A stretch of DNA of 64,000 nucleotides, from NCBI GenBank assembly GCA_002376885.1, contig DFOW01000001.1, forward strand, positions 143,741 to 207,740, read 5' to 3'. Origin of the DNA: Patescibacteria group bacterium UBA3531 (lineage in GTDB: Bacteria > Patescibacteriota > Minisyncoccia > Phycocordibacterales > UBA3531). The notes beneath the pieces were generated by a model. That model was given only the letters and a program-made list of their open reading frames with translations. It ran no database searches and was not told where the DNA came from. Of the stretch, positions 5,059-57,750 are shown piece by piece (within the stretch, counting starts at the first letter, position 1; every line of letters starts with the position of its first letter). Both the position numbers and the translations under genes were made by a program.

Positions 5059-5319
5059 TCAGCCTCGGGCTGATTTATTTCCCACAACGGTTTTTACTGC
5101 TTTCTTTACGGTTCGACCTCCTTTTTTAATATTTCTTCGTACAAAACCAATATCTTGTGCCAGATTATCTACTTCCTCACTTGCGCGTCGCGAGATTCGT
5201 TTTACATCTCGAATAATTCTTATGAGATATACAAGAAGCACCACAATCAAAATGGCAATAACCACTACCACAAAGGTTGTCGTGGCAAAAAAGATATCTG
5301 ACTTTAGTAACTCTGTCAT
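5059..5319 (-). CDS. small membrane protein (N-terminal TM + charged coiled-coil tail; DUF948-like architecture)
   Basis: 86 aa, TM FVVVVIAILIVVLLVYLI followed by basic/acidic helix; family not verified. Confidence 0.4.
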   Translation of the reverse strand: MTELLKSDIFFATTTFVVVVIAILIVVLLVYLIRIIRDVKRISRRASEEVDNLAQDIGFVRRNIKKGGRTVKKAVKTVVGNKSARG

Positions 5320-5324
5320 TGAAA

Positions 5325-6308
5325 TTATTGTATCACAGGTGTTTTTGTTGAGGTAAGAAAGTTCTCAATCTTCTCCTCCACCTCTTTTGCACTGTCTGCC
5401 TCCATAAGTTCCATACGTAACTCTTTGGCCCCATCAAAACCATTTACATAGGCCTTAAAGTGTCGCTTCATAACAGCAAAACTCTTTAGGCCTCCCATAA
5501 GTTCATCATAGAGTTTTGTGTGCTCAACAAGGGCACGGAGTATTTCTTCGTGAGAAAGATCCTCTCGATCAATATCTTTACTAAATAACCATGGGTTTCC
5601 GTAAATAGCACGGCCAAGCATAACCCCATCACATCCTGTCTCTTTAACTTTTTGGTGTGCATCTTTGATTGAAAGAGCGTCGCCGTTACCTAAAATAAGC
5701 GTATCCTTGCACGTCCCGTCACGGATTGCGACAATCTCTTTCATCTTCTCCCAATGTGCAGGAACTTTTGACATTTCTTTACGGGTTCGCAAATGCACGG
5801 TAAGAGCTGGGATATTCATTTCTAACAATTTTGGAATCCATGTTTGTATTTCATCGGTATTGTATCCAATGCGGGTTTTAACTGACACCGGCAAATCTCC
5901 TGCCCCCTCCATAGTTTTCTTAATGATCTCTTGTGCGAGTTCTGGATTTTTTATGAGTCCTGCTCCTGCTAATTGTTTTTCAACACTTCTATCAGGGCAT
6001 CCCATGTTGAGATCAATTCCATCAAAACCAAGCTCCTGTGCAAGTTGTGCTGTTTTTTTAAAATTCTCTGGTTTACCACCAAAAATCTGAAGCACTATTG
6101 GTCGCTCTTCTTCGGCGTAAACGATATCTTTTAAAATTCTTTTTTTGCCAACGCTCTGGAGTCCGTCGCACGAGACAAATTCGGTAAACATAACATCGGG
6201 TTTACCGCGCCGCGCAATAATAGCCCGATATGGCGGGTCAGTAACGTCTGCCATAGGTGCAAGCACCATAAGAGGCTTATTTAATTTCTCCCAAAATCCT
6301 TTCTTCAT
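5325..6308 (-). CDS. dus: tRNA-dihydrouridine synthase
   Basis: MVLAPMADVTDPPYRAIIARRG...FTEFVS.DGL and TIM-barrel Dus motifs; start at internal ATG (MKKGFWEKL) leaving a 4-bp gap to upstream gene. Confidence 0.8.
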   Translation of the reverse strand: MKKGFWEKLNKPLMVLAPMADVTDPPYRAIIARRGKPDVMFTEFVSCDGLQSVGKKRILKDIVYAEEERPIVLQIFGGKPENFKKTAQLAQELGFDGIDLNMGCPDRSVEKQLAGAGLIKNPELAQEIIKKTMEGAGDLPVSVKTRIGYNTDEIQTWIPKLLEMNIPALTVHLRTRKEMSKVPAHWEKMKEIVAIRDGTCKDTLILGNGDALSIKDAHQKVKETGCDGVMLGRAIYGNPWLFSKDIDREDLSHEEILRALVEHTKLYDELMGGLKSFAVMKRHFKAYVNGFDGAKELRMELMEADSAKEVEEKIENFLTSTKTPVIQ

Positions 6309-6312
6309 TTGT

Positions 6313-7389
6313 TTAGAATACAATTTCTTTATCCCAAAGAAGAGCTTCGATCTGAAATGTGCCATTCAAAAAGCTTGTACCTGGGGTATATGAGTGTATA
6401 CCAGAAGGGCCAATTTCAACAAGTAGGGTGCGTCCCATCATGGTTTCTGGGGAAAAATACTGGTCAAAAATAAAATTACCCAGACTGTAAGCAATAAGGC
6501 CATCGTTATATTCTTCTATCTCTTGTGTCACATGTGGATGGTGCCCAATAATAAGATCTGCACCGAGATCAATTGAGTTTCTTGCAAGTGTTTGTTGTCG
6601 TTTATTTGATTCAGGCTCGTACTCTTCGCCAAAATGATACGAGACGACAAGAATATCAACTTCTTTTTTAGCTAGTGGGATATACGTCTCAAGATTGCTT
6701 TGTGTTGCTAAATACACTCCCGCTTCATCTTTTTTTGAAGGAAGCCATGCTGGGCCAACGTCACTAAAAGCCAGGTATCCAATACGTATGCCTTCTTTTT
6801 CAATAATCGTTAGAGCGTCATTTAAATCTTCCTTCCCCCACCCAACAGAAGAAAGGCCCACGTCTTTTATATTGTTTACTGACTCATTAGCGGCGGCTGG
6901 CCCCCAATCCCCAATATGATTATTAGCTAAAGACAAAACATTAAACCCGGCCTCTTTGAGAACAGAAAGAGTCATAGGGTGCATACGGAAAGAATACAGA
7001 TTTCCAATCTCTTCTCCACCATAGGCAACAGGACCCTCTAGATTTCCAAACAAGATATCAGTTTTAGGAAATTTAATTTTTTGGAAAAGATATGAGTAAT
7101 CCCCGCCACGTTTGTCGACTGACGAGCGAACTCCTCTATCAAGCATAATGTCTCCCACAAAACCAAGTGTTATGGTTTCTTTTTTGGGCTCCTCTTTTAT
7201 TTCGGGGCGAACCAAAAGCGCTGTCTGACCCTCTTTATACGAAGGATTGTTTATTTGTGGTAATGCTTCTACTAAAGGAGCGAGTCGTGCCCCTGTCGCA
7301 CCATTTGCCTGGTAACTAACCTCAAGAAAAGAAAAAAGACCAAATAATGATATTGATACAACAATAAGTGCTACTTTCCCGGCATTCAT
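6313..7389 (-). CDS. CapA/PGA_cap family metallophosphatase-like protein, membrane-anchored
   Basis: N-term signal/TM; GFVGDIMLDRGV...LSLANNHIGDWG...GHHPHV motifs typical of CapA. Confidence 0.65.
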   Translation of the reverse strand: MNAGKVALIVVSISLFGLFSFLEVSYQANGATGARLAPLVEALPQINNPSYKEGQTALLVRPEIKEEPKKETITLGFVGDIMLDRGVRSSVDKRGGDYSYLFQKIKFPKTDILFGNLEGPVAYGGEEIGNLYSFRMHPMTLSVLKEAGFNVLSLANNHIGDWGPAAANESVNNIKDVGLSSVGWGKEDLNDALTIIEKEGIRIGYLAFSDVGPAWLPSKKDEAGVYLATQSNLETYIPLAKKEVDILVVSYHFGEEYEPESNKRQQTLARNSIDLGADLIIGHHPHVTQEIEEYNDGLIAYSLGNFIFDQYFSPETMMGRTLLVEIGPSGIHSYTPGTSFLNGTFQIEALLWDKEIVF

Positions 7390-8213
7390 TATTCTTTTTC
7401 TTTATAAAAAATCTTTTTACCAAATCGAGCGTCAATGTAATCAATCCCCTCCATCCATTGTGCTACTGTTCCTGTTCCGTTTTGTTTTACAACGTCTGAA
7501 CGAAAAAGGGTAAATAGATTGTCTGCAACAACATTTAAATCGTCGCCTCCATTAAATAACACTTCTGTTCCAACTTCCGTTATAAGCGCATAATCATTAT
7601 CGCTGCGTATATGTCCTTCTTTAAAAGCAATATCTTTTTTCAGCGAGTCTCTGATGGTAAAGAGAGGCAAGAGAGTTTCTGGCATGGCTACCTTCTCTCC
7701 TAAGGGTTTACTAACGGCACCATCTTTTTTAACAATAAAATATTCGTTTGTGCTCGTACCTACACTTCCAAAAATTGTTCCGTCTTCATCAAGCCGGTTG
7801 CACCCTGTATTGGTACACCATACAAGATTAGAGTTTCTTTCGATAAGAGAAACTTCTAAACTGGTTGGAGTTCTTAAGGGTGCGCTGATAGAAATTGATT
7901 CAATATAAGGCTCTTGCTCGATAAGTAGCGCAAGGAGATTTTGTTTTGGATAAATAAAATAATTCTTTTTGGGGAAAATTCCAATATATGAGGAAGAGAG
8001 TTCTTCTTCTATTGTTTCTTCAATGGATTGTGGGTTAATTTTTTCTGCCCCGCTTACTGAAACAGTTTGGATTGAAAGTGACGGCAAATGGGTAACCCAT
8101 ACGATCCCTCCAAATACAAGAACGACTAAAAGCCCCCCTAAAATCTTGAAAATTTTTTTTCTTTGTGAAGCTTTGGGGTCGTTCCGTCTAAATGACCGAT
8201 GAATCCCTGCCAT
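7389..8213 (-). CDS. FtsQ/DivIB-like cell-division protein (cytoplasmic tail, one TM, POTRA-like domain)
   Basis: Basic N-tail, TM LGGLLVVLVFGGIVWV, then IQTVSVSGAEKINPQSIEE POTRA-like segment. Confidence 0.45.
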   Translation of the reverse strand: MAGIHRSFRRNDPKASQRKKIFKILGGLLVVLVFGGIVWVTHLPSLSIQTVSVSGAEKINPQSIEETIEEELSSSYIGIFPKKNYFIYPKQNLLALLIEQEPYIESISISAPLRTPTSLEVSLIERNSNLVWCTNTGCNRLDEDGTIFGSVGTSTNEYFIVKKDGAVSKPLGEKVAMPETLLPLFTIRDSLKKDIAFKEGHIRSDNDYALITEVGTEVLFNGGDDLNVVADNLFTLFRSDVVKQNGTGTVAQWMEGIDYIDARFGKKIFYKEKE

Positions 8214-9507: not shown

Positions 9508-10368
9508 ATGAACCCATTTGGCGATGTTCCGCTTCGCACACTAAAAGGAGACGACATTCCGGAAACTCTACGGGAGATCCCTGACCCTCCTAAAAAACTG
9601 TATGTACAAGGAGACTTACCAAAAGACTCTATTTATTTAACCGTTGTTGGTGCCCGAAAATATTCTGCATACGGAAAAGGCGCTTGTGAAGACATTATCG
9701 AAGGACTTAAAAATTATCCTTTTACTATCGTCTCAGGGCTTGCACTTGGTATTGATGGAATAGCCCATAAAAAAGCACTCGAAGTTGGTTTGCCGACCAT
9801 TGCTGTTCCAGGATCAGGACTTGATCCCTCAGTGATCGCGCCACGCACCAATTATTTTTTGGCACAAGACATTGTAAAAAGTGGTGGAGCGCTGTTGTCT
9901 GAATTTGAGCCAACCATGCCGGCCGCTCCCCGCACTTTTCCAAAACGAAACCGGATCATGGCTGGACTCTCTCAAGGTATTCTTATAATAGAAGCAACAA
10001 AAAAGTCAGGCACGTTAATTACCGCACGTCTTGGGCTCGACTACAATAAAAATATTTTTGCTGTCCCTGGGGCTATAACATCCCCCACAAGCGAAGGACC
10101 AAATTGGTTAATAAAAGAAGGAGCCACACCAGTTACCGACGCTCGTGATATTTTAGAAGTCTTTGGATTTGACACTCAAGATGAACCCAAAAACAAAGAA
10201 CCACTTCAAGGAAAAGAAAAAGAGCTCTTTGAACACATACAAAAATTCCCTAACAAAACAGATCTTTTAGAAAAAACAGGATGGTCAATAACCGACATTA
10301 ATATTGTAGGAACATCGCTTGAATTAAAAGGCTTAGTAAAAGACAACGGAGAAACATTTTCTTTTTAA
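9508..10368 (+). CDS. dprA: DNA-processing protein DprA (Smf)
   Basis: LTVVGARKYSAYG...IVSGLALGIDGIAHK...FPKRNRIMAGLS.GILIIEA Rossmann-like DprA signature. Confidence 0.85.
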   Translation: MNPFGDVPLRTLKGDDIPETLREIPDPPKKLYVQGDLPKDSIYLTVVGARKYSAYGKGACEDIIEGLKNYPFTIVSGLALGIDGIAHKKALEVGLPTIAVPGSGLDPSVIAPRTNYFLAQDIVKSGGALLSEFEPTMPAAPRTFPKRNRIMAGLSQGILIIEATKKSGTLITARLGLDYNKNIFAVPGAITSPTSEGPNWLIKEGATPVTDARDILEVFGFDTQDEPKNKEPLQGKEKELFEHIQKFPNKTDLLEKTGWSITDINIVGTSLELKGLVKDNGETFSF

Positions 10369-12587: not shown

Positions 12588-12609
12588 GAGGCCCACTTTC
12601 GTGGGCCTC
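12588..12609. terminator. GC hairpin after topA (gaggcccac-tttc-gtgggcctc)
   Basis: Perfect 9-bp stem immediately after topA stop; no strong T-run. Confidence 0.4.
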
Positions 12610-12636
12610 TGAGTTCGTTGTTCTGGAGTTCTGCCT

Positions 12637-12903
12637 CTAGGCCGACTCCGGAATCCCTCCGACCTCCTTGAGACGCCTGTTGGCGCGCTCGAGGAGCTCG
12701 TCCCGATCGTAGCCGGGCCAGACGATCGTACGCGTCCCGGCCAGAAGCGATCGGATGTAACCACCAACACACCTGATACGCCAGGCACCCTGGTTCGCCC
12801 CCCGATCGGTGTGATCACCGAGCTTGTCGATGAAGGCGAGCTCCTGCTGTTGCGTCCACCCGGTGGTCAAAGGCCCCGAAACGGGAACCGATCGACGTGT
12901 CAT
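12637..12903 (-). CDS. G+C-rich ORFan (cassette A), 88 aa
   Basis: GC3-rich frame; AGGAG 6 nt upstream of ATG; own TTGACA-17-TATTTT promoter; no family recognised. Confidence 0.4.
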   Translation of the reverse strand: MTRRSVPVSGPLTTGWTQQQELAFIDKLGDHTDRGANQGAWRIRCVGGYIRSLLAGTRTIVWPGYDRDELLERANRRLKEVGGIPESA

Positions 12904-12942
12904 GTCCTACTCCTTGTTGAAGGGAAAGAATTACTGCCTATG

Positions 12943-12971: not shown

Positions 12972-13013
12972 TAATACCCTTCCTTTTTCCTTCCGGCTCC
13001 CTATAATCAAGGT

Positions 13014-14450
13014 ATGGCGGATTTACAAGAATTATTTGAGAAAAAGCCCGATCTTAAAAAGAAAGAGAGGGATTTTATAGAAAAAGCATATCGTTTTGCA
13101 CAAGATGCTCACGGCGACCAAAAAAGATACTCGGGTGAGCTGTATTTTAATCATGTGGTTAGGTCAACTATTAATCTTCTTGATTTTAAAGTTGATAAAG
13201 AAACAATTGCGGCCGGACTTCTTCATGATGTCGTAGAAGATTGCGATGTTGAGCTTTCAGTTATTGAAAAAGAATTTGGCAAAGATGTTGCCTCGCTTGT
13301 ATCGGGAGTAAGTAAGCTAGGTACCGTAAAATACCAGGGACGTGAGCGCTATGTCGAGAATATGCGTCACTTATTTTTATCGATTGCAGATGATGTCCGT
13401 ATCCTTTTAATTAAACTTGCTGATCGACTTGATAATGTTCGGACCCTTGAGTTCGTACCAAAACACAAACAAGGGCGAATTGCTCTTGAAACACTTGAGG
13501 TATATGTCCCCCTCGCCAATCGACTTGGTATGGGTAAATTACGTTCTGAACTTGAAGAACCAGCCTTTAAATTTGCCTTTCCAGAAGACTACGCCCAGGT
13601 AAAAACACTTATCACCGAAAAAGGACGGGAGCGAGAAAAATATATTAAAAAAGTATTCAAATCGCTTTCAAAGCAATTAGTAAAAGCTGGTGTTAAAGAT
13701 GCTCACGTAGGATACCGAATTAAAGATACCTACAGTATTTACAAAAAACTCCTCAAAAAAGACATGGATGTTGCAAAAATTTATGACCTATATGCCCTCC
13801 GTGTCATTGTTCCTAAGGTTGAAGACTGCTACCAAGTGCTTGGAATTATTCATAAATTATGGAAGCCTCTCCCTGGCCGAATCAAAGATTACATTGCCAA
13901 CCCTAAAATTAACGGATATCAAAGCCTCCACACAACCGTGTTTACCGGAGATGGCGGTATTGCTGAAATCCAAGTACGGACTGAACAAATGCATACCGAT
14001 GCCGAGTACGGAGTTGCCGCTCATCTTCTTTACAAGGGGTCCCTTGGTAACAAAAAAGAGGAGCGCCTTAAGTGGCTCTCACACATCAGAGAAATTAATG
14101 AAGAAAATACTGGAAGTGAGGACTTTTTGAAAAACCTAAAACTGGATTTGTTTGAAAAACATGTCTTTTTATTTACTCCCCTTGGAGATGTTATTGAGCT
14201 TCCTGAAGGTTCGACAGCGCTTGATTTTGCCTATGCAATCCACTCAGACATCGGAAATCATGCCTCTGGCGTTAGGGTAAACGGAAAATTTGTGTCGCTT
14301 GATACAGAATTAAATAGCGGCGACATTGTTGAGGTCCAAACAAAACAAAATAACAAACCAACAAGAAAGTGGCTTGATTATGCAAAAACAAGTTTTGCAC
14401 AACGCTACATTAGAAACTTTTTAAAACAAGAGAATAAAAAGGAACCCTAG
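13014..14450 (+). CDS. rel: bifunctional (p)ppGpp synthetase/hydrolase, RelA/SpoT family (short)
   Basis: HD domain HGDQKRYSGELYFNHV..HDVVED, RelA_SpoT synthetase core YSIYKKL...LRVIV, TGS-like C-terminus. Confidence 0.85.
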   Translation: MADLQELFEKKPDLKKKERDFIEKAYRFAQDAHGDQKRYSGELYFNHVVRSTINLLDFKVDKETIAAGLLHDVVEDCDVELSVIEKEFGKDVASLVSGVSKLGTVKYQGRERYVENMRHLFLSIADDVRILLIKLADRLDNVRTLEFVPKHKQGRIALETLEVYVPLANRLGMGKLRSELEEPAFKFAFPEDYAQVKTLITEKGREREKYIKKVFKSLSKQLVKAGVKDAHVGYRIKDTYSIYKKLLKKDMDVAKIYDLYALRVIVPKVEDCYQVLGIIHKLWKPLPGRIKDYIANPKINGYQSLHTTVFTGDGGIAEIQVRTEQMHTDAEYGVAAHLLYKGSLGNKKEERLKWLSHIREINEENTGSEDFLKNLKLDLFEKHVFLFTPLGDVIELPEGSTALDFAYAIHSDIGNHASGVRVNGKFVSLDTELNSGDIVEVQTKQNNKPTRKWLDYAKTSFAQRYIRNFLKQENKKEP

Positions 14451-15379: not shown

Positions 15380-15439
15380 GATTACTTATACTAAAGCAAA
15401 TTGATTTGCCGAGCAAATTTGAGTACACTGCTTTGGTAC

Positions 15440-15521
15440 GCTGGAGTGGCGGAATTGGTAGACGCGCACGACTCAAAATCGTGTCTCTTCGGAGGTGGGA
15501 GTTCGATTCTCCCCTCCAGCA
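15440..15521 (+). tRNA. tRNA-Leu (anticodon CAA), class II long variable arm
   Basis: GCTGGAG acceptor, D-loop GGAATTGGTAG, anticodon loop CTCAAAA, variable arm TCTCTTCGGAGGTG, T-arm GGGAGTTCGATTCTCCC. Confidence 0.85.
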
Positions 15522-15530
15522 CAATTTAAT

Positions 15531-15653
15531 CCAGGGAAGGAATTGGTAGGTGAAATGTCTGGGAGACATTTCACGACGACTATCTAAATCTTCTCTTCGG
15601 AGGTGGGAGTTCCCTGCCTTGTCGGCAGACAGGGATTCTCCCCCCGGGCACCA
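15531..15653 (+). pseudogene. degenerate tRNA-Leu-derived copy with hairpin insertions (tRNA-like element)
   Basis: Shares D-loop GGAATTGGTAG, variable arm and T-stem with the adjacent tRNA-Leu. Carries a perfect 11-bp hairpin with GGG loop (GTGAAATGTCT-GGG-AGACATTTCAC) and a 21-nt insertion in the T-loop. Anticodon arm destroyed, acceptor ends do not pair, ends GCACCA. Confidence 0.5.
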
Positions 15654-15679
15654 CAGCTCATTGACCAAAGGAACTTCTT

Positions 15680-16090
15680 TTGGTTAAATCAGTAATGGGT
15701 GGCAATGGGTGCCACAAAGCTCATGTACCACTTGTCTTTGGGGAGACAAACGTGAAACAAGGAAGGACGTCCTGTGAAGATCCGTTCGTCAACTTCAACG
15801 ATCACCTCTACAAGCGCCGGGGCATCGGCTCGCTCGAAGAGGGGAAGCTCGAACGGACGGAGGATCGACCCGCCTGGGTGCCGGAGGAAGCGACCGTCGC
15901 TGTACGGACGCGGCGCCTCCACGAACGGAGGGTTCTCGAGGTAACCACGTTCCGCCCGAACGGGAGCGGGTTCATCGAACAGAAGAACATCTTGGGAGGC
16001 GGCCGCGGTAGCATGCCGTCCCCCCAGATCGTGGAGATGCTCCTGAAGGAGGAGTACCCCTCGATCGACGTCCACCTCATCCAGGGCTAG
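15680..16090 (+). CDS. G+C-rich ORFan (cassette B); alternative GTG start at 15752
   Basis: Strong G/C bias at third codon positions in this frame; AGGAAGG just before internal GTG; overlapping minus-strand ORF 15689..16075 treated as GC shadow. Confidence 0.4.
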   Translation: MVKSVMGGNGCHKAHVPLVFGETNVKQGRTSCEDPFVNFNDHLYKRRGIGSLEEGKLERTEDRPAWVPEEATVAVRTRRLHERRVLEVTTFRPNGSGFIEQKNILGGGRGSMPSPQIVEMLLKEEYPSIDVHLIQG

Positions 16091-16111
16091 CGCTTCAGGC
16101 GCACAGCCTTC

Positions 16112-16156
16112 GCGGGGCGTGCGGCACGAAAGTGTCCACGCCCCGCCTTCTTTTTT
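16112..16156 (+). terminator. strong intrinsic terminator (10-bp GC stem + T-run) ending at the miaA ATG
   Basis: GCGGGGCGTG...CACGCCCCGC followed by cttctttttt then ATG of miaA at 16157. Confidence 0.6.
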
Positions 16157-17044
16157 ATGAACAAATCAAAGCTAATCATCATCGGGGGGCCAACAGCAAG
16201 TGGCAAAAGCGACTTAGCAGTTAGTGTGGCAAAAAAATATGGTGGAGAAGTTATTTCAGCAGATTCAAGGCAAGTATATAAGGGTCTTGATATTGGAACA
16301 GGAAAAATAACAAAAAAAGAAATGGGGGGCATTCCTCACCATCTTCTTGATGTAGCAAGCCCTAAAGAGCAATTTACTGCCCAGGACTTTCAAACAAAAG
16401 GAGGCCAAGCTATTAAAAAAATTTTTAAAAAAAATAAACTCCCCATTATTTGCGGCGGCACTGGATTTTATATAGATGCTCTCATATATAAAACTCAATT
16501 TCCAAGCATCCCCCCTAATAAAACCTTGCGCACAAAACTTGAAAAAAAGACACCTGAGGAGCTTTTTAAAATACTTAAGAACAAAGATCCCGAAAGAGCC
16601 ATGGTAATTGATCAGCACAATAAACGAAGATTAATCCGAGCCTTAGAGATTGTAGAAACTTTAGGAAAAGTTCCACAATTACACAAAACATTGCCCTATA
16701 AAATTTTATATATAGCGCTTGATCCAGTTGATCTTGATATAAAAATTCATGCGCGCCTAAAAGCAAGAATCAAACAAGGACTTATAAAAGAGGGGGAAAC
16801 ACTCCATAAAAAAGGTCTTTCGTATAAACGGATGAGAGAGCTGGGGCTTGAGTATAAATATTTAGCAGATTTGCTTCAAGAAAAAATCACTAAAGAAGAA
16901 TTTACTGAACAACTTGAAAAAGAGATCAGGCGTTATGCAAAACGGCAAATGACCTGGTTTAAAAAACAAAAAAATGTTCTTTGGTTTAAACCAAATGAAA
17001 CTAAAAAAATCTCCACAAAAGTAGAGAAATTTTTAGCTCTTTAG
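16157..17044 (+). CDS. miaA: tRNA dimethylallyltransferase
   Basis: N-terminal P-loop IIGGPTASGKS, ADSRQVYKGLDIGTGK, MiaA fold. Confidence 0.85.
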   Translation: MNKSKLIIIGGPTASGKSDLAVSVAKKYGGEVISADSRQVYKGLDIGTGKITKKEMGGIPHHLLDVASPKEQFTAQDFQTKGGQAIKKIFKKNKLPIICGGTGFYIDALIYKTQFPSIPPNKTLRTKLEKKTPEELFKILKNKDPERAMVIDQHNKRRLIRALEIVETLGKVPQLHKTLPYKILYIALDPVDLDIKIHARLKARIKQGLIKEGETLHKKGLSYKRMRELGLEYKYLADLLQEKITKEEFTEQLEKEIRRYAKRQMTWFKKQKNVLWFKPNETKKISTKVEKFLAL

Positions 17045-17045
17045 G

Positions 17046-17117
17046 CGGGTCCACCAGGACTTGAACCTGGAACGGTGGTTTTGGAGACCACTGTTTTACC
17101 AATTAAACTATAGACCC
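17046..17117 (-). tRNA. tRNA-Trp (anticodon CCA)
   Basis: Acceptor GGGTCTA/TGGACCC, anticodon stem GTGGT/ACCAC loop CTCCAAA, T-arm CCAGGTTCAAGTCCTGG. Confidence 0.8.
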
Positions 17118-17183
17118 CTCTCCTGTATGTACAGTGAGGCCATTATAACAGAGAGAGTAGGAAAAGAAATTATTTCTTTACCT

Positions 17184-17210
17184 CGTTATGAATAGTGTGC
17201 TTCCTGCACC
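17184..17210. repeat. 27-bp direct repeat copy of the rpmG 3' end (cgttatgaatagtgtgcttcctgcacc)
   Basis: Matches 17326-17352 (cgttatgCatagtgtgcttcctgcacc) with one mismatch; separated by a GC-rich 105-bp spacer. Confidence 0.7.
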
Positions 17211-17311
17211 TATTACCACTCGGAAACCCACGGTTTTCCGACGGCTTCGCCTGCCTTTCTCCACGGGAAAACTAGAGTTTTCCCGACCCCTTTCCTGCAA
17301 ATGGTACAGGA

Positions 17312-17470
17312 TTACTTTTTTATTTCGTTATGCATAGTGTGCTTCCTGCACCATTTACAGTGCTTTTTGAGTTCAATTTTACGCTCAACAAGCTTCCGAT
17401 TCTTTCGGCTCCAGTAATTAGTGCGCTTACAATCTTTGCACGCAAGTTTTATAAGTTGATCTTGTGACAT
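17312..17470 (-). CDS. rpmG: 50S ribosomal protein L33
   Basis: 52-aa ORF below track cutoff: MSQDQLIKLACKDCKRTNYWSRKNRKLVERKIELKKHCKWCRKHTMHNEIKK, with CxxC...CxxC zinc ribbon and HxxE ending typical of L33. Confidence 0.75.
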   Translation of the reverse strand: MSQDQLIKLACKDCKRTNYWSRKNRKLVERKIELKKHCKWCRKHTMHNEIKK

Positions 17471-17532
17471 ATATTCAAAATTTGAGCTTCATAAAGATAC
17501 CCCATAGACCCTGAAAAATCAAGAGAAAAGGC

Positions 17533-17928
17533 TCACCATGCGGCGAGCCTTCCTTCCCCCGTGCCCTCGGGCTTGGGAGGAATGGCGCTTCTCTGCGGCC
17601 TTCGGAAGAACTGAGATTCCCCCATGGCACGCAACATCTTGACGAAGTCGTCCTCGACACAGAAACCGAGCCTCATGATGCACTCGGGACCATCGCAAAG
17701 GACAACGACAGCGTGACTTCCTTGGGCGCCGTCCTTGGGCTGGAAGACCGAGACCCTTCCTTGGAAGCGCCAAGCAACCAAGCAATCGATGAATCCGATC
17801 TTCGTCCCACAACGAGGACAGACGCGCTTGGGGCACCACACCCCAAACCCAGCACCGGCACTGATACTGTCAGCAACCGAAGACCCCCAGGAAGTGACCC
17901 AATAATCTTCGGGAACAATCTGCGTCAC
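17533..17928 (-). CDS. G+C-rich ORFan with 4-Cys zinc-ribbon-like motif (cassette C), GTG start
   Basis: CPKRVCPRCG...CDGPEC; GC3-rich; AAAGGGGGGG upstream of GTG; no family recognised. Confidence 0.4.
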   Translation of the reverse strand: MTQIVPEDYWVTSWGSSVADSISAGAGFGVWCPKRVCPRCGTKIGFIDCLVAWRFQGRVSVFQPKDGAQGSHAVVVLCDGPECIMRLGFCVEDDFVKMLRAMGESQFFRRPQRSAIPPKPEGTGEGRLAAW

Positions 17929-17961
17929 AGCCCCCCCTTTCTGAAAAACACTTTACCTTTT

Positions 17962-17990
17962 TTGACATAAAAAAGAAAGCATAGTATGGT
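17962..17990 (+). promoter_or_regulatory. promoter TTGACAtaaaaaag-17-TATGGT for cassette C plus-strand gene
   Basis: TTGACA 17962-17967, TATGGT 17985-17990. Confidence 0.45.
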
Positions 17991-18303
17991 TTACGTCTGT
18001 TCTTATTGGGGAAGGAGCCCTATAGACATGCACCATGTTGAAGTGCTAGACATCGATGGATTCCAGAACTTCCGCCTACATGAGGGAGACGAGATCATCC
18101 TCCCTGGCGTTCATCTCGAAGCCTCTCCCGCCCCGGGAGACAAGGTGAAGCTCGCCTTCCGTGACGTGGACTGCGTGACGAAGACGAGAGAAGCACTCAT
18201 CACCGGATCCATCGACCCCGGCGAGCCGAGCAACCCGAGGGAGCCCGTGGCTCCCAAGGACATCCGAGTTCGGTGGAACGATCCCATCGTGCGCTGGTCC
18301 TAA
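17986..18303 (+). CDS. G+C-rich ORFan (cassette C), 105 aa (alternative start 18028)
   Basis: GC3-rich frame, followed by strong terminator; no family recognised. Confidence 0.4.
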   Translation: MVYVCSYWGRSPIDMHHVEVLDIDGFQNFRLHEGDEIILPGVHLEASPAPGDKVKLAFRDVDCVTKTREALITGSIDPGEPSNPREPVAPKDIRVRWNDPIVRWS

Positions 18304-18316
18304 CGGACCAGACAAA

Positions 18317-18352
18317 GACCCCCGCGCATGCGCGGGGGTCTCGTCATTTTTA
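18317..18352 (+). terminator. intrinsic terminator GACCCCCGCGCATGCGCGGGGGTC + T-run
   Basis: 12-bp perfect GC stem followed by tcgtcatttttat. Confidence 0.7.
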
Positions 18353-18485
18353 TACAGTGTGCGCCGGGCAGGATTCGGTCACGAGTTACAAATTCGCTTT
18401 GCTCATAAGTACTCTCGACCCCAGCTCAAAAATAATCTCCCAGATTATTTTTTCCGCTCTTCGAATCCTAATTCCAGTCCAGAAA

Positions 18486-18516: not shown

Positions 18517-18526
18517 ATCTCTGTGT

Positions 18527-18609
18527 GCGCCGGGCAGGATTCGAACCTGCGTAGGTCTAAGACCGGCGGATTTACAGTCCGCTGCAATTGACCACTCTGC
18601 CACCGACGC
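18527..18609 (-). tRNA. tRNA-Tyr (anticodon GTA), long variable arm
   Basis: Acceptor GCGTCGG/CCGGCGC, anticodon stem GCGGA/TCCGC loop CTGTAAA, T-arm GCAGGTTCGAATCCTGC. Confidence 0.85.
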
Positions 18610-25883: not shown

Positions 25884-26630
25884 ATGCAGTATATAATATT
25901 ATCACCTTGTATGGGTATAAAATATTTAATAGACGAGCAATACTTTGAGAGCTGGTCCCCTGAAATGGCATACATTCTTGGATTTTTATATGCAGACGGA
26001 AGTTTGGAAAACGCTCCTAAACTGCGAGGAAAATATGTCAGAGCAACAAGCACCGATCTTGAAGTAATAAAACATATAAAAAAATCTTTACGTTCTGAAC
26101 ACAGAATAATCATAATACCCTCTTTTAGAAAGAGAAAAGAGAGATACTTGTTCAGAGCTGGAAGCCATGTTCTTTTTGATTCATTGACACAACATGGCCT
26201 TTTTCCAAATAAGTCTTTATCAATGAAGTTCCCCAAAAACATCCCTTCAAACTACCTAAGTCATTTTATAAGGGGATATTTTGATGGTGATGGATGTGTT
26301 CACTTGTCACAGGCCCGCAACCGAGAAGGTGCTCTACTGGTTAAAAGATTGGGCGTTGTCTTTACAAGCGGAAGTGAGTTATTTTTAAAAGAATTAGAAC
26401 GAGAAATCAGAAATGTCTTAAATATCAAAAAAAGAAATATCTATAAGAGTCGTCGTTCATTCCAGTTACGATATAGCACGACTGACAGTATAGAACTATT
26501 TACATTGATATATGCAAATACAAAAAATTTATTTTATTTAGGTAGAAAAAAAGAGATTTTCCTTCGATATTTTAAGTTGCGACCTCAGAGAATTAATACT
26601 AATATTGGTAAAATGTTAAAAAATATGTAA
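25884..26630 (+). CDS. free-standing LAGLIDADG homing endonuclease (two LAGLIDADG motifs)
   Basis: LGFLYADGS and IRGYFDGDGCV motifs about 100 aa apart; basic C-terminus. Confidence 0.75.
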   Translation: MQYIILSPCMGIKYLIDEQYFESWSPEMAYILGFLYADGSLENAPKLRGKYVRATSTDLEVIKHIKKSLRSEHRIIIIPSFRKRKERYLFRAGSHVLFDSLTQHGLFPNKSLSMKFPKNIPSNYLSHFIRGYFDGDGCVHLSQARNREGALLVKRLGVVFTSGSELFLKELEREIRNVLNIKKRNIYKSRRSFQLRYSTTDSIELFTLIYANTKNLFYLGRKKEIFLRYFKLRPQRINTNIGKMLKNM

Positions 26631-28296: not shown

Positions 28297-29475
28297 ATGT
28301 CAATCATAACCCTGACGTTGATCGTCTTCGTCACGCTCCTTGTTCTGAGTGTGCCGTTGTTCGTCCTCGTTGCGTGGCTCCTGGCCTACCTGGATATCTT
28401 TTTTGGATTCCTCCAGGAGAATACGGGCTTCGCCAAGATCGTTGGAGACAACCAACTTCAAAGCATGCAAATCGCTTCGAAGAGTCAGCACCTCAAAAGG
28501 AAGGTGGTCCAACACCCTGAGGCGGGCGCAATCGAGACGTGGGTTCTGGAACAAGGAGCAGATCCCAACCCTGCCTTCGGCCTTATTGGTTGGATGGAGC
28601 GCAAGCTTGGTGTCTACTGGATTGGTGTTTGGCCGTTCCAAAGGCGCTACCGGTACGAGATGTTCCGAACCGTCTTCGATCGGAGTGCTGACGCAGACGA
28701 GAACACGATCCTCCGGAAGAATGACCAGAGCAAGTTCTTCTACGTTCAGCCGGTGGAGTACGCCTTCTCTCTCCTCGGAGCAGAGACAGGCAGTGCCTTC
28801 GCTGGCGACACAGAAGATACGGACACTTCGTCTCGGGGTGGCAACATCCCGGTGAACGTGAAGTTCTCCGTGTTCCTCTTGATCACAAGACCCGAGATTG
28901 CCCTCTTCAAGAACCCTGTATGGTTCGAGCGAGCAAGCTCGATCCTTCTGTCCGCAGCGAAGAACTACGTCGGCACTCGTGCGTATGAGGCGCTCCGTGG
29001 CGAAAGCCGATCGGACACCGCAGACGTCGAGACCGATGATGCCTTCGCGGGCTACATGCGGGATCTGAACGAAGCGATTCCGGGAACCGGTCACGGCTTC
29101 GAATCCGAGATCGGTGCCAAGATCGTCGGAGCGGCCATCAGAGCCGTCGACATCACGGCGGAGGGCGAAGAGGCCCGAAGCGCAACGCTGCTCCTCTACG
29201 GAGAAGAGCAGCGCGCCAAGGGAATCCGAGCCGTCGCTGATGCGCGTCGCTACGAGCTCGAACAGGAGCTCGATGCAGTCGATGGATCCCCCAACGGGGG
29301 GCACGTCCGTCGGATGCGCGCGATCGAGCGTGCAGGTGAGCGTGGTAACACAATCATCTTCACGAGCGGCGGCGACGAAAAGGAGGATCGTGTCGCAGCG
29401 AACCTTCTGGCTGGCCGCAAGGGTGAAGACCCCTCAAGCGAAGGCACCGATGACTCCACCGAGAAGGAGGAGTAG
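28297..29475 (+). CDS. G+C-rich SPFH/band-7-like membrane protein (cassette D)
   Basis: N-terminal TM, beta-rich core with ...ASSILLSAAKNYVGTRAYEAL..., EIGAKIVGAAIRAVDI, then A/E/R-rich coiled-coil AEGEEARSA...RAKGIRAVADARRYE as in HflK/C-flotillin. Confidence 0.5.
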   Translation: MSIITLTLIVFVTLLVLSVPLFVLVAWLLAYLDIFFGFLQENTGFAKIVGDNQLQSMQIASKSQHLKRKVVQHPEAGAIETWVLEQGADPNPAFGLIGWMERKLGVYWIGVWPFQRRYRYEMFRTVFDRSADADENTILRKNDQSKFFYVQPVEYAFSLLGAETGSAFAGDTEDTDTSSRGGNIPVNVKFSVFLLITRPEIALFKNPVWFERASSILLSAAKNYVGTRAYEALRGESRSDTADVETDDAFAGYMRDLNEAIPGTGHGFESEIGAKIVGAAIRAVDITAEGEEARSATLLLYGEEQRAKGIRAVADARRYELEQELDAVDGSPNGGHVRRMRAIERAGERGNTIIFTSGGDEKEDRVAANLLAGRKGEDPSSEGTDDSTEKEE

Positions 29476-30252
29476 ATGAAGATGCCTGACTCGATAAGGG
29501 GGCTTGGGTGGAAGCGGTTCTCCGCAACTGCCCTTACCTCGTTCATCCTCGTCATTGTCTCGTTCATGATCGTGAACGCAGGCGAGGGCGAGGCAGAGAA
29601 GGTCTTCAAGACTCTCTCTGTGATTGCGACCGGGATTGGAGCACTCCTCGTTCTCCTGCTTCTTCTCGTGATCGTGTCGTCTCTTGCTCGTAGGCGTCGG
29701 TCTCTCAAAAAAGAGACTCCCGTCGTCGACAAGCCGACCAAACCAGGAAGATGGCAGAAGTTCAGGGCCACTCCCTTCTTCTGGACACTCTTCAAGGTCT
29801 CCGCCTTCGTAGTGGCAGTAGTCATTGCAATAAGCGGATTCCCTCTGTTGCGTGACGCCATGAACATCCCCGACGTGGGGCCCAGGAATGGAGATCTCAA
29901 GTTCTCCAAGTGGACGCTCTCCAGTACACCACTGTCGTACAACCTGAATCGAACGACACGTGGTACGGTCAAGATCTGGAAGAAAGAGCGTCGCTTTGAG
30001 CTTCCGTTCTTCTTGAACATGAAGCTCATGGGCGAGGATGGAGTTCTCGTGGGGCAAATCACCTCGAGTGACTTTGCCATGGGCGAGACCTTCCCCGTCA
30101 CCTGGGAGATGACCTGGCGAGACCATATGACCGGAGACGGAGCCCTCGAGTGTCACTACAACAAACACCACAGCGTGATTGCTTGTAACGGCACCATCTG
30201 CGGCGAAGATTCCGAAGGTCGGAGGTGTCGTCGAGTGAACTTTAGCGGCTAG
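29476..30252 (+). CDS. G+C-rich membrane protein (3 TM + Cys-containing soluble C-domain), start abuts upstream stop; possible NfeD-like partner
   Basis: TAG-ATG junction at 29473-29478; three hydrophobic helices; no family recognised. Confidence 0.4.
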   Translation: MKMPDSIRGLGWKRFSATALTSFILVIVSFMIVNAGEGEAEKVFKTLSVIATGIGALLVLLLLLVIVSSLARRRRSLKKETPVVDKPTKPGRWQKFRATPFFWTLFKVSAFVVAVVIAISGFPLLRDAMNIPDVGPRNGDLKFSKWTLSSTPLSYNLNRTTRGTVKIWKKERRFELPFFLNMKLMGEDGVLVGQITSSDFAMGETFPVTWEMTWRDHMTGDGALECHYNKHHSVIACNGTICGEDSEGRRCRRVNFSG

Positions 30253-57274: not shown

Positions 57275-57300
57275 AGCACTACTATACTAAAGTATTTCTC

Positions 57301-57347
57301 TTAAAAAGAAAGCCGCCTCGAGTCCACAATGGGTACCCGGGCGGCGG
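57301..57347 (-). terminator. GC hairpin + U-run ending the cassette G transcript just upstream of lepA start
   Basis: Minus RNA ...CUCCGCCGCCCGGGUACCCAUUGUGGACUCGAGGCGGCUUUCUUUUU. Confidence 0.45.
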
Positions 57348-57453
57348 AGTGGACGGCACCTGGGTGCGTCCATGGTTTTCTAGTGCGCAAGGCGCACCTT
57401 GGTGGAAGGTCCCAGCTCAAGGGGTGAGCCTCGAGTCTGGGCGGAAGGCGGAT

Positions 57454-57648
57454 CTAGCCGAAGAGGGGCGCACCGAGCGAGACGACCCCGCCGGGCAGGA
57501 TCACGTGACCCCGACCATCCGAACCGAGCGGCGGACCGCTGAGCTCGGAGAACGGGATCTCGCTCTCGCGACGGAGCCGGCGAACCGAGCCACGCGTCCG
57601 GGTGCTCTCCTTGGTGCGTACCGTGCCTTCGCCTTCCTGTTTCTTCAT
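57454..57648 (-). CDS. very G+C-rich small basic ORF (cassette G), 64 aa; coding status uncertain
   Basis: AGGAAGGGAAGGAAT-cccg-ATG context; track ORF begins at TTG inside the -35 box so trimmed to internal ATG. Confidence 0.3.
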   Translation of the reverse strand: MKKQEGEGTVRTKESTRTRGSVRRLRRESEIPFSELSGPPLGSDGRGHVILPGGVVSLGAPLFG

Positions 57649-57715
57649 CGGGATTCCTTCCCTTCCTGAAGTTCTCTTTCGAGCGCGGCCCCCAGCCACG
57701 CTACGTCCACTATCC

Positions 57716-57744
57716 AAACTACTATAATAAAAGTCTTTTGTCAA
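57716..57744 (-). promoter_or_regulatory. promoter cTTGACAaaag-17-TAGTTT for cassette G
   Basis: -35 TTGACA at 57739-57744 (minus); near-identical to cassette D promoter over 20 nt. Confidence 0.4.
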
Positions 57745-57750
57745 GCCCCC

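Follow-up and report, generated by a model that had tools for sequence, protein, structure and literature searches.

Transfer RNA (tRNA) and messenger RNA (mRNA) can be transcribed together, as with the thrU-tyrU-glyT-thrT-tufB genes of Escherichia coli. Phage morons, in turn, are defined by a promoter and a stem-loop terminator of their own, a deviant G+C content (GC), and by being 'more DNA' with respect to related genomes (PMC3594210). The element considered here, cassette B, is a small GC-rich gene unit lying between the genes for tRNA-Leu(CAA) and the tRNA dimethylallyltransferase MiaA in a 64,000-nt stretch (hereafter the window; overall GC 0.42) of the Patescibacteria genome UBA3531 (contig DFOW01000001.1). 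Horizontal transfer has been documented in Patescibacteria, and the islands reported there so far are larger and were predicted with IslandViewer (PMC12455944). With a probability of roughly 0.65, cassette B would be a self-contained accessory gene unit placed in a former tRNA-Leu(CAA)-miaA co-transcription unit of a marine Parcubacteria lineage.

The GC is about 60% over positions 15700–16150 and 0.57–0.63 across 15600–16200, whereby the cassette itself reaches 0.63 compared to 0.35–0.41 for the adjoining genes. Its plus-strand open reading frame (ORF), ORF B (15752–16090), encodes 112 amino acids (aa) followed by a stop codon and has a GC of 0.64/0.42/0.82 at the first, second and third codon positions (GC1/2/3). 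Read from 15680 (ORF 15680–16090), the third position stands at 0.77; the strong third-position bias of the plus frame reported in an earlier note on this DNA is therefore reproduced (0.77–0.82). The 128-aa minus-strand ORF (15689–16075), which the same note had considered a shadow, indeed shows the mirrored pattern (0.76/0.42/0.64) and a lower cross-species score, and is not regarded as a gene. Relatives were obtained through matches to the MiaA protein and subsequent look-up of their contigs. In one of these, L041, a plus-strand ORF of 116 aa occupies the same position before miaA and is 37% identical to ORF B (BLASTP E 2e-13), where ParB and RelA are 83–84% identical. In another one, L046, miaA is preceded by a 127-aa plus-strand ORF, the C-terminal half of which is 28% identical over 75 aa (E 5e-5), with an hhalign E-value of 1.4e-4 against ORF B. 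In all three pairwise frame comparisons the plus-0 frame scored best (117 vs. at most 101 for window–L041, 66 vs. at most 44 for window–L046 and 54 vs. at most 42 for L041–L046), and the frame is open at 112–127 codons in the three lineages. Judged by codon-position GC and orthologues, ORF B is a real protein-coding gene. Its start is probably GTG 15752 and not TTG 15680 or ATG 15695, since the equivalent upstream stretch contains an in-frame stop in L046 and no start codon in L041; the gene call in ENA had taken in 15695–15751. An independently assembled 851-bp ENA contig (L025) spans the 3' part of a pseudo-tRNA upstream of the cassette, the ORF, the terminal hairpin and the miaA start with a single nucleotide polymorphism and, because it reproduces both cassette junctions, these are no assembly artefact or chimera.

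The product of ORF B is predicted to be a small alpha+beta protein, the single-sequence AlphaFold2 model having a predicted local distance difference test score of 58 and a predicted template modelling score of 0.52. The search of 5.8 billion clustered proteins returned a near-identical ENA copy as the sole match. No family copy beyond this slot was found in those proteins, in 1.84 billion representative proteins or in the phage, plasmid and IMG/VR viral collections, a negative result that is weakened by wrong-strand gene calls. Likewise, nothing was obtained in Pfam, PHROGs, NCBIfam, PADLOC, PDB or by phage and plasmid tblastn; no profile or structure match to any described family or fold was significant, and a profile search with the two-orthologue alignment together with an IMG/VR scan gave no new members. 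Two matches of an exhaustive phmmer search (P0002 and P0003) proved to be translated tandem repeats with 10 and 5 matches at about 8–9 bits per copy and were discarded as statistical artefacts. The single IMG/VR match of the 5' motif GGTGGCAANGGGTGCCAC, which falls within coding sequence of a GC-rich phage that has no relation to the cassette, was put down to chance. The reason for the empty protein searches lies in the gene calls, which were made on the wrong strand or are missing: the Logan caller chose the antisense shadow in L041, as JGI did for the window (135-kb contig of marine metagenome record 3300020447, Ga0211691_10000017, L048), and L046 has no call at this place. The description of ORF B as an ORFan consequently holds for the protein databases but not at the DNA level, where L041 and L046 carry positional orthologues. 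Relatives having this gene as a conserved syntenic core gene had been named as the observation that would speak against the earlier view. In part this is what was found, with the same gene at the same place in L041 and L046, yet it is clade-restricted and replaceable, i.e., accessory.

A three-way DNA alignment of the window, L041 and L046 showed as invariant blocks TTGAC, TTRAAT, GGTGGCAA, GCGGGGCG, CGCCC.GC and a U-rich run before the miaA ATG, where miaA opens with ATGAA; the start codon of the ORF varies between GTG and ATG. The most conserved parts of the cassette are signals and not protein. The first two blocks belong to a predicted promoter (15661–15689, plus strand), the positions of which are kept, with different spacer sequences, as TTGACC-17 nt-TTAAAT in the window, TTGACT-17-TTGAAT in L041 and TTGACG-17-TTAAAT in L046. 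A consensus promoter scan passes over it, position 2 of the −10 box being T. The block GGTGGCAA, 6–8 nt 3' of the −10 box, opens an inverted repeat of 5–6 bp, which reads GTGGCA-N5-TGCCAC in both the window (15699–15715, at the predicted 5' end of the transcript) and L046 and folds in these two as a 6-bp hairpin; it might function as an operator or as a hairpin in the RNA. TGGCA-N5-TGCCA is not taken as a sigma-54 promoter, since its GG-to-GC spacing is, by eye, two bases shorter than in the sigma-54 consensus. A Shine-Dalgarno-like GGGGAG (15740–15745) is located 6 nt 5' of GTG 15752; its equivalents are GGGGA in L041, AGGAG in L046 and, in two further relatives, AGGAG (L047) and GGGGGA (L052).

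Beginning 21 nt past the TAG stop codon (16088–16090), a 15-bp hairpin (16112–16146) consists of a 10-bp outer stem (GCGGGGCGTG/CACGCCCCGC), a 1-nt bulge, 5 further pairs and a GAAA loop, and 8 of the next 10 nt are T. The 76-nt hairpin stretch has a folding energy of −37 kcal/mol (z = −5.9), and none of 200 shuffled sequences was as stable; z-scores in the window, L041 and L046 vary from −5.0 to −5.9. The base of the stem (GCGGGGCG/CGCCC(C/T)GC) is kept in L041 and L046, while the changes in the upper stem are compensatory. By its sequence, the hairpin with its U-tract has the features of an intrinsic terminator. It was overlooked by a simple terminator scan, which accepts only loops of 3–8 nt and no bulged stems. 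The earlier description of a 10-bp GC terminator hairpin whose T-run abuts the miaA start codon can now be refined: the 10 bp are the outer part of the 15-bp hairpin, followed by CTTCTTTTTT (16147–16156), both terminator tail and sole 'leader' of miaA, and then directly by ATG 16157. The U-rich tracts before miaA in L041, L046 and L047 are 14–18 nt long. Rfam gave nothing in the cassette, either at gathering thresholds or at E ≤ 10.

Based on these features, a sigma-70-type promoter would drive the cassette, producing a transcript with a 5' untranslated region of about 55 nt, which opens with the conserved inverted repeat or hairpin and leads through the Shine-Dalgarno site to the GTG. It would encode the fast-evolving 112-aa protein, and the GC hairpin with its U-tract would end most of the cassette transcripts. 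The downstream miaA, without a promoter of its own, might be made from read-through or hairpin-processed transcripts that start at the cassette or the tRNA-Leu promoter, with translation probably beginning without a Shine-Dalgarno site, like that of most genes of this genome. The slot itself turns over, L052 and L047 holding unrelated GC-enriched small ORFs of the same build.

The miaA gene (16157–17044, plus strand, 295 aa, Pfam IPPT 7.8e-67) has its P-loop GPTASGKS at residues 11–18, as in homologues, and this placement marks ATG 16157 as the true start; the JGI gene (16226–17044, P0004, 272 aa) begins 23 codons late and loses the P-loop. Reading of the upstream sequence revealed neither a Shine-Dalgarno site nor a −10 box, in line with the earlier remark that miaA has no visible leader or ribosome-binding site: only the hairpin and the U-tract precede it, and the same is true for L041, L046 and L047. 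The lack of a ribosome-binding site does not, however, stand as a sign of disruption, as it is normal here: a Shine-Dalgarno match is absent in about 39 of the 44 window ORFs of at least 150 aa. Many window ORFs have a TAnAAT box 5–10 nt before the ATG (for example at 13002–13016, 15380–15400 and 57275–57300), which suggests a largely leaderless transcriptome. What distinguishes miaA is that it has neither a Shine-Dalgarno site nor a TAnAAT box. The simplest reading of the sequence is that miaA is expressed from transcripts passing the hairpin or processed at it.

The state without the cassette is represented by several relatives. In these the tRNA-Leu(CAA) gene, which in the window is functional by prediction (15440–15522, plus strand; ARAGORN; Rfam tRNA 59.7 bits), adjoins miaA and ends 5 nt (L055) or 17 nt (L042, L043) before its ATG. 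Moreover, some database MiaA proteins have N-terminal extensions that are translated tRNA-Leu, such as P0039 (VDAHDSKSC...), P0052 (RRARLKIV...), P0067 and P0042. From the empty sites and these extensions it follows that the tRNA-Leu/miaA adjacency is widespread and the cassette is the derived state. As 5–17 nt cannot accommodate a promoter, it is most likely that miaA was originally transcribed together with tRNA-Leu. The tRNA-Leu to miaA spacing in related genomes, the comparison proposed at the outset, has thereby been obtained, and it divides the idea of an insertion into a former promoter region: the cassette is extra DNA relative to these genomes, but the site was a tRNA-miaA unit in which 5–17 nt leave no room for a promoter.

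The genomes with empty sites are more distant from the window, with ParB/RelA identities of 66/64% for L055 and 55/52% for L042. In comparison, the window, L041 and L052 form a closer group, with ParB at 83% and RelA at 84% in L041 and ParB at 78% in L052; MiaA is 67% identical in L041 and 61% in L046. Because it is common to the window and L041 at this distance, the insertion is old, and cassette B appears from the sequence comparison as an old accessory insertion, not a recent one, in a variable slot of a small Parcubacteria clade. L041 has the order parB, tRNA-Leu(CAA), a segment of 0.61–0.65 GC and miaA, with no recognisable pseudo-tRNA, and in L046 no tRNA-Leu is found upstream of the cassette. 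Scans of GTDB and JGI with MiaA gave only relatives of at most 57% identity, with no synteny. The closest named MiaA relatives belong to Paceibacterota, Zambryskibacteria and 'Parcubacteria group' metagenome-assembled genomes.

The gene order around the cassette is topA, relA/spoT, parB (minus strand), tRNA-Leu(CAA), cassette, miaA, and then, all on the minus strand, tRNA-Trp, rpmG, tRNA-Tyr and clpB. No integrase, transposase or phage gene was detected by Pfam among the scanned ORFs of at least 150 aa in 1–40 kb of the window. Besides tRNA-Leu(CAA), miaA has tRNA-Trp(CCA) (17044–17117) and tRNA-Tyr(GTA) (18525–18609) in its surroundings. All three tRNAs read UNN codons, the class in which A37 is modified by MiaA. 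Both the tRNA-Leu/miaA and the miaA/tRNA-Trp adjacencies recur in many relatives, a tRNA setting being seen in L042, L044, L046, L047, L050 and L055.

The pseudo-tRNA reported beside tRNA-Leu is present at 15530–15653 (plus strand), as seen from repeats and alignment, and is a degenerate full-length tandem copy. It shares with tRNA-Leu an exact 21-nt repeat and an 18-nt repeat at 83%, and the alignment covers the whole tRNA, interrupted by two hairpin insertions of about 21–25 nt (15550–15574 and 15612–15634), both occurring once in the window. Five of the seven acceptor pairs are left and the anticodon arm is destroyed; the predicted fold is two long hairpins with no cloverleaf. The copy gave no ARAGORN call and no match to the Rfam tRNA model even at E ≤ 10, and it lacks the intact set of acceptor, D, anticodon and T arms expected of a functional tRNA. 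Its 3' end GCACCA (15648–15653) includes an encoded CCA, which the functional tRNA-Leu of the window, L041, L042 and L055 do not encode; this may be chance or a hint of an origin from a mature or foreign tRNA.

Turnover of the slot is visible in two relatives. In L052, tRNA-Leu is followed by a different segment of 0.58–0.60 GC, composed of GGGGGA, 8 nt, a GTG, a 95-aa ORF (780–1067) and a 12-bp hairpin, which is separated from the miaA ATG by 19 nt. In L047, the succession is tRNA-Leu, TTGAAA-17-TATAAA, a GC hairpin, AGGAG, GTG, a 97-aa ORF, a hairpin with a T-run and miaA. No relationship of either slot ORF to ORF B could be detected (hhalign probability below 1%). In more distant genomes the slot holds LAGLIDADG-like, DUF1653, redoxin or unknown genes, with the tRNA sometimes inverted. 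On the other side of miaA, between it and tRNA-Trp, L042 carries an integrated element (5110–7669) with a large serine recombinase (Resolvase + Recombinase, 443 aa) and a 403-aa ORFan.

The window contains at least four further GC-rich islands with ORFans, most with a TTGACA-type promoter and all with a Shine-Dalgarno site and a hairpin terminator; the presence of a Shine-Dalgarno site in every island gene sets them apart from most window ORFs. Three of them have a GC of 0.55–0.69: 12590–12910 (minus strand, 88-aa ORFan, TTGACA-type promoter, Shine-Dalgarno site, GC hairpin), 28297–30252 (plus strand, membrane-like ORFans of 392 and 258 aa, Shine-Dalgarno site, GC hairpin) and 57300–57745 (minus strand, 64-aa ORFan, TTGACA-type promoter, Shine-Dalgarno site, GC hairpin). 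The island ORFs gave no significant family match, only a sub-threshold MFS_1 for the 258-aa protein, and those of the window are not paralogous to one another or to ORF B. Island C (17475–18350) has a TTGACA-17-TATGGT promoter, flanked by two divergent ORFans at 17533–17928 (minus) and 18028–18303 (plus, Shine-Dalgarno GGAAGGAG). An exact second copy of the last 21 nt of tRNA-Tyr (18357–18377 and 18523–18543) is found 166 nt downstream of the tRNA, and island C lies beyond this copy. A 48-nt direct repeat at 85% (17169–17216 and 17311–17358) copies the 3' end of rpmG (L33, 17312–17470, minus) and brackets a GC-rich insert of about 95 nt (17217–17310). Elsewhere in the window, a LAGLIDADG-type endonuclease gene is situated directly upstream of a tRNA-Cys/Leu/Lys/Leu cluster, and dprA, consistent with a capacity for DNA uptake, is also present (25884–26630 and 9508–10368, respectively).

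The age of the cassette can be compared with that of its neighbours at synonymous sites. Where the window and L041 agree in the amino acid, they also use the identical codon in 21 of 41 cases in ORF B, 90 of 190 in miaA and 121 of 253 in parB, barely above the 17.5, 82 and 105 expected from codon usage at full saturation. Since the share in ORF B matches those in miaA and parB, the cassette looks as old as its neighbours, with synonymous sites largely turned over, and the matched divergence fits co-descent since the window–L041 split. At the same time, the GC3 of the cassette is 0.82/0.71/0.60 in the window, L041 and L046, compared to 0.27/0.26/0.23 for miaA. If the cassette descended vertically, near-saturated synonymous sites would demand a locus-specific force acting on GC, for instance biased conversion, or selection for certain codons or for the structure of the mRNA; the other way out would be that related alleles were re-delivered from a GC-rich pool. 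A GC-maintaining force is favoured by the equal synonymous divergence and the strict slot fidelity, and re-delivery by the GC-enriched but unrelated ORFs that L052 and L047 have in this slot, together with the other GC-rich ORFan islands of the window, at least four in number. This demand for a special force is one of several points that weigh against cassette B as an old, self-contained gene unit. The −10 box, TTAAAT, departs from the canonical sequence. A hairpin of this strength with 8 U among the 10 nt behind it should, by the rules known from E. coli, be an efficient terminator, so that few transcripts would continue into miaA. Only three orthologues of ORF B are known, and the homology in L046 is weak and limited to the C-terminal half. 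Finally, promoter, transcription start, termination and read-through are all deduced from sequence and conservation.

Several other explanations have to be weighed. Repeated horizontal delivery, in which an exchangeable module from a GC-rich pool would reach the slot by tRNA-site integration or by flank recombination after DNA uptake and the three copies would be separate arrivals, is rather unlikely, with several observations in its favour. Apart from a GC3 of 0.6–0.8 next to host values of 0.23–0.27 despite near-saturated synonymous sites, it draws on the non-homologous GC-enriched ORFs of like layout in the slots of L052 (ParB 78%) and L047, on the Shine-Dalgarno site and GTG start of the cassette, both rare in this genome, and on the other Shine-Dalgarno-led GC-rich ORFan islands of the window. 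The duplicated 3' ends at tRNA-Tyr and rpmG and the serine recombinase element beside miaA in L042 point in the same direction, and dprA makes DNA uptake plausible. However, the collections searched (proteins, phage, plasmid and IMG/VR) held no family copy outside the slot, wrong-strand calls again weakening this negative. At synonymous sites the cassette has diverged just as much as the host genes on either side, neither an integrase among the scanned ORFs nor direct repeats around the cassette were found, and its AT-rich promoter looks host-like. The pseudo-tRNA directly 5' of the cassette, the atypical composition and the tRNA-Tyr 3' end duplicated beside island C might also suggest that an integrative element targeting tRNA genes inserted recently and in this lineage alone, destroying the promoter of miaA and leaving the pseudo-tRNA behind as a scar of its attachment site. 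This is very improbable. The orthologous cassettes in L041 and L046 largely refute it, the possibility that these belong to the same species being argued against by ParB at 83% and MiaA at 61–67%, and L041 is without a recognisable pseudo-tRNA. Moreover, the pseudo-tRNA sits between the tRNA and the cassette, so that the two copies do not bracket the cassette like attL and attR; there is no tRNA fragment at the miaA-proximal end, no integrase was found among the scanned ORFs, and the empty sites are too short to have held a promoter.

The strand and the nature of the product can be questioned as well. That the minus-strand ORF is the gene has next to no probability: it was picked by gene callers on two occasions, and the window, L041 and L046 all have it as an open frame, but antisense frames are open by default in GC3-rich genes, its codon-position GC mirrors a coding pattern, its cross-species scores are 60–73 against 117 (window–L041) and 35–44 against 66 (window–L046), and the promoter, the Shine-Dalgarno site and the terminator are all oriented for plus-strand expression. 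The GC-rich segment might instead be chiefly RNA, a structured leader or attenuator of miaA with an incidental or secondary open frame. The 5' inverted repeat and the base of the hairpin, neither of them coding, are the best conserved of all blocks while the protein falls to 28–37% identity, L046 keeps the cassette next to miaA without a tRNA-Leu upstream, and high GC kept against mutation pressure would suit a structural RNA. Nevertheless, we consider it improbable, given the strong three-base periodicity (GC2 0.42, GC3 0.82), amino-acid conservation that is best in one frame across species, an ORF open over 112–127 codons in three lineages with a Shine-Dalgarno site at the right distance, no Rfam family even at E ≤ 10, and unrelated slot sequences in L047 and L052, by which no common RNA is required for miaA. 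A more far-reaching proposal treats the tRNA-Leu/miaA junction as a dedicated hypervariable slot for swapped or GC-held Shine-Dalgarno-led genes, the hairpin acting as a tRNA stand-in (a processing or insulation signal) that gives miaA the short-leader 5' end required where translation is mostly leaderless, and the gene family, overlooked by all annotation through wrong-strand calls, being part of a conflict system such as phage defence or immunity; as a whole, we find it unlikely. A conflict-type role of ORF B (phage-, immunity- or toxin-related) is suggested by the very rapid divergence and the slot turnover, and is a guess made with low confidence.

The self-contained accessory unit in a former tRNA-Leu-miaA co-transcription unit contradicts nothing in known biology; it exemplifies the turnover of accessory genes and has one compositional oddity. 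ORF B stands for a small gene family that is new and has been mis-annotated, located in a hot spot for accessory genes of an ordinary kind, and it demonstrates that 'ORFan' status can be an annotation artefact, the family having been invisible to protein-level searches of 15 billion sequences. The locus also provides an example, from an uncultured and streamlined phylum, of a small slot of variable content that separates a tRNA gene from the gene for the enzyme modifying tRNAs of its class. It presents the puzzle of a GC3 near 0.8 kept after synonymous saturation where the genome equilibrium is near 0.27, and raises the question of how a gene without promoter and Shine-Dalgarno site is expressed directly behind a strong terminator.

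Compared with described systems, the nearest architecture is that of the phage morons, which the cassette resembles in being a single small gene with its own predicted promoter and terminator and a GC unlike its neighbours. It differs from them in not being located in a prophage, its neighbours being parB, relA, tRNA genes, miaA, rpmG and clpB with no phage or integrase genes within 40 kb (Pfam), in its position conserved across species, and in a downstream housekeeping miaA that appears transcriptionally dependent on it. Like integron cassettes, it consists of one small ORF, in most cases an ORFan, with a hairpin-forming element behind it, and the ORF that occupies the slot differs between genomes; in contrast, it has its own promoter within the cassette and forms no array, no intI was found among the scanned ORFs, and a sequence read of 16090–16156 revealed no GTT or AAC core of attC (GTTRRRY/RYYYAAC). 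TRNA-adjacent islands and islets are similar in lying immediately 3' of a tRNA, in atypical composition and ORFan content and in the adjoining duplicated tRNA sequence, and relatives have a hot spot in the wider region, with genes of LAGLIDADG-like, DUF1653 and redoxin type and a serine recombinase element. Cassette B is, however, only about 0.5 kb long with one gene and no integrase found, and its tRNA copies are in tandem upstream, none being at the miaA end. The relatives without the cassette are comparable to tRNA-mRNA units, with tRNA-Leu(CAA) 5–17 nt before miaA, which would be transcribed with the tRNA and released by 3' processing. In the window, the cassette lies between the two, and a hairpin with a U-tract stands where those relatives have the tRNA 3' end.

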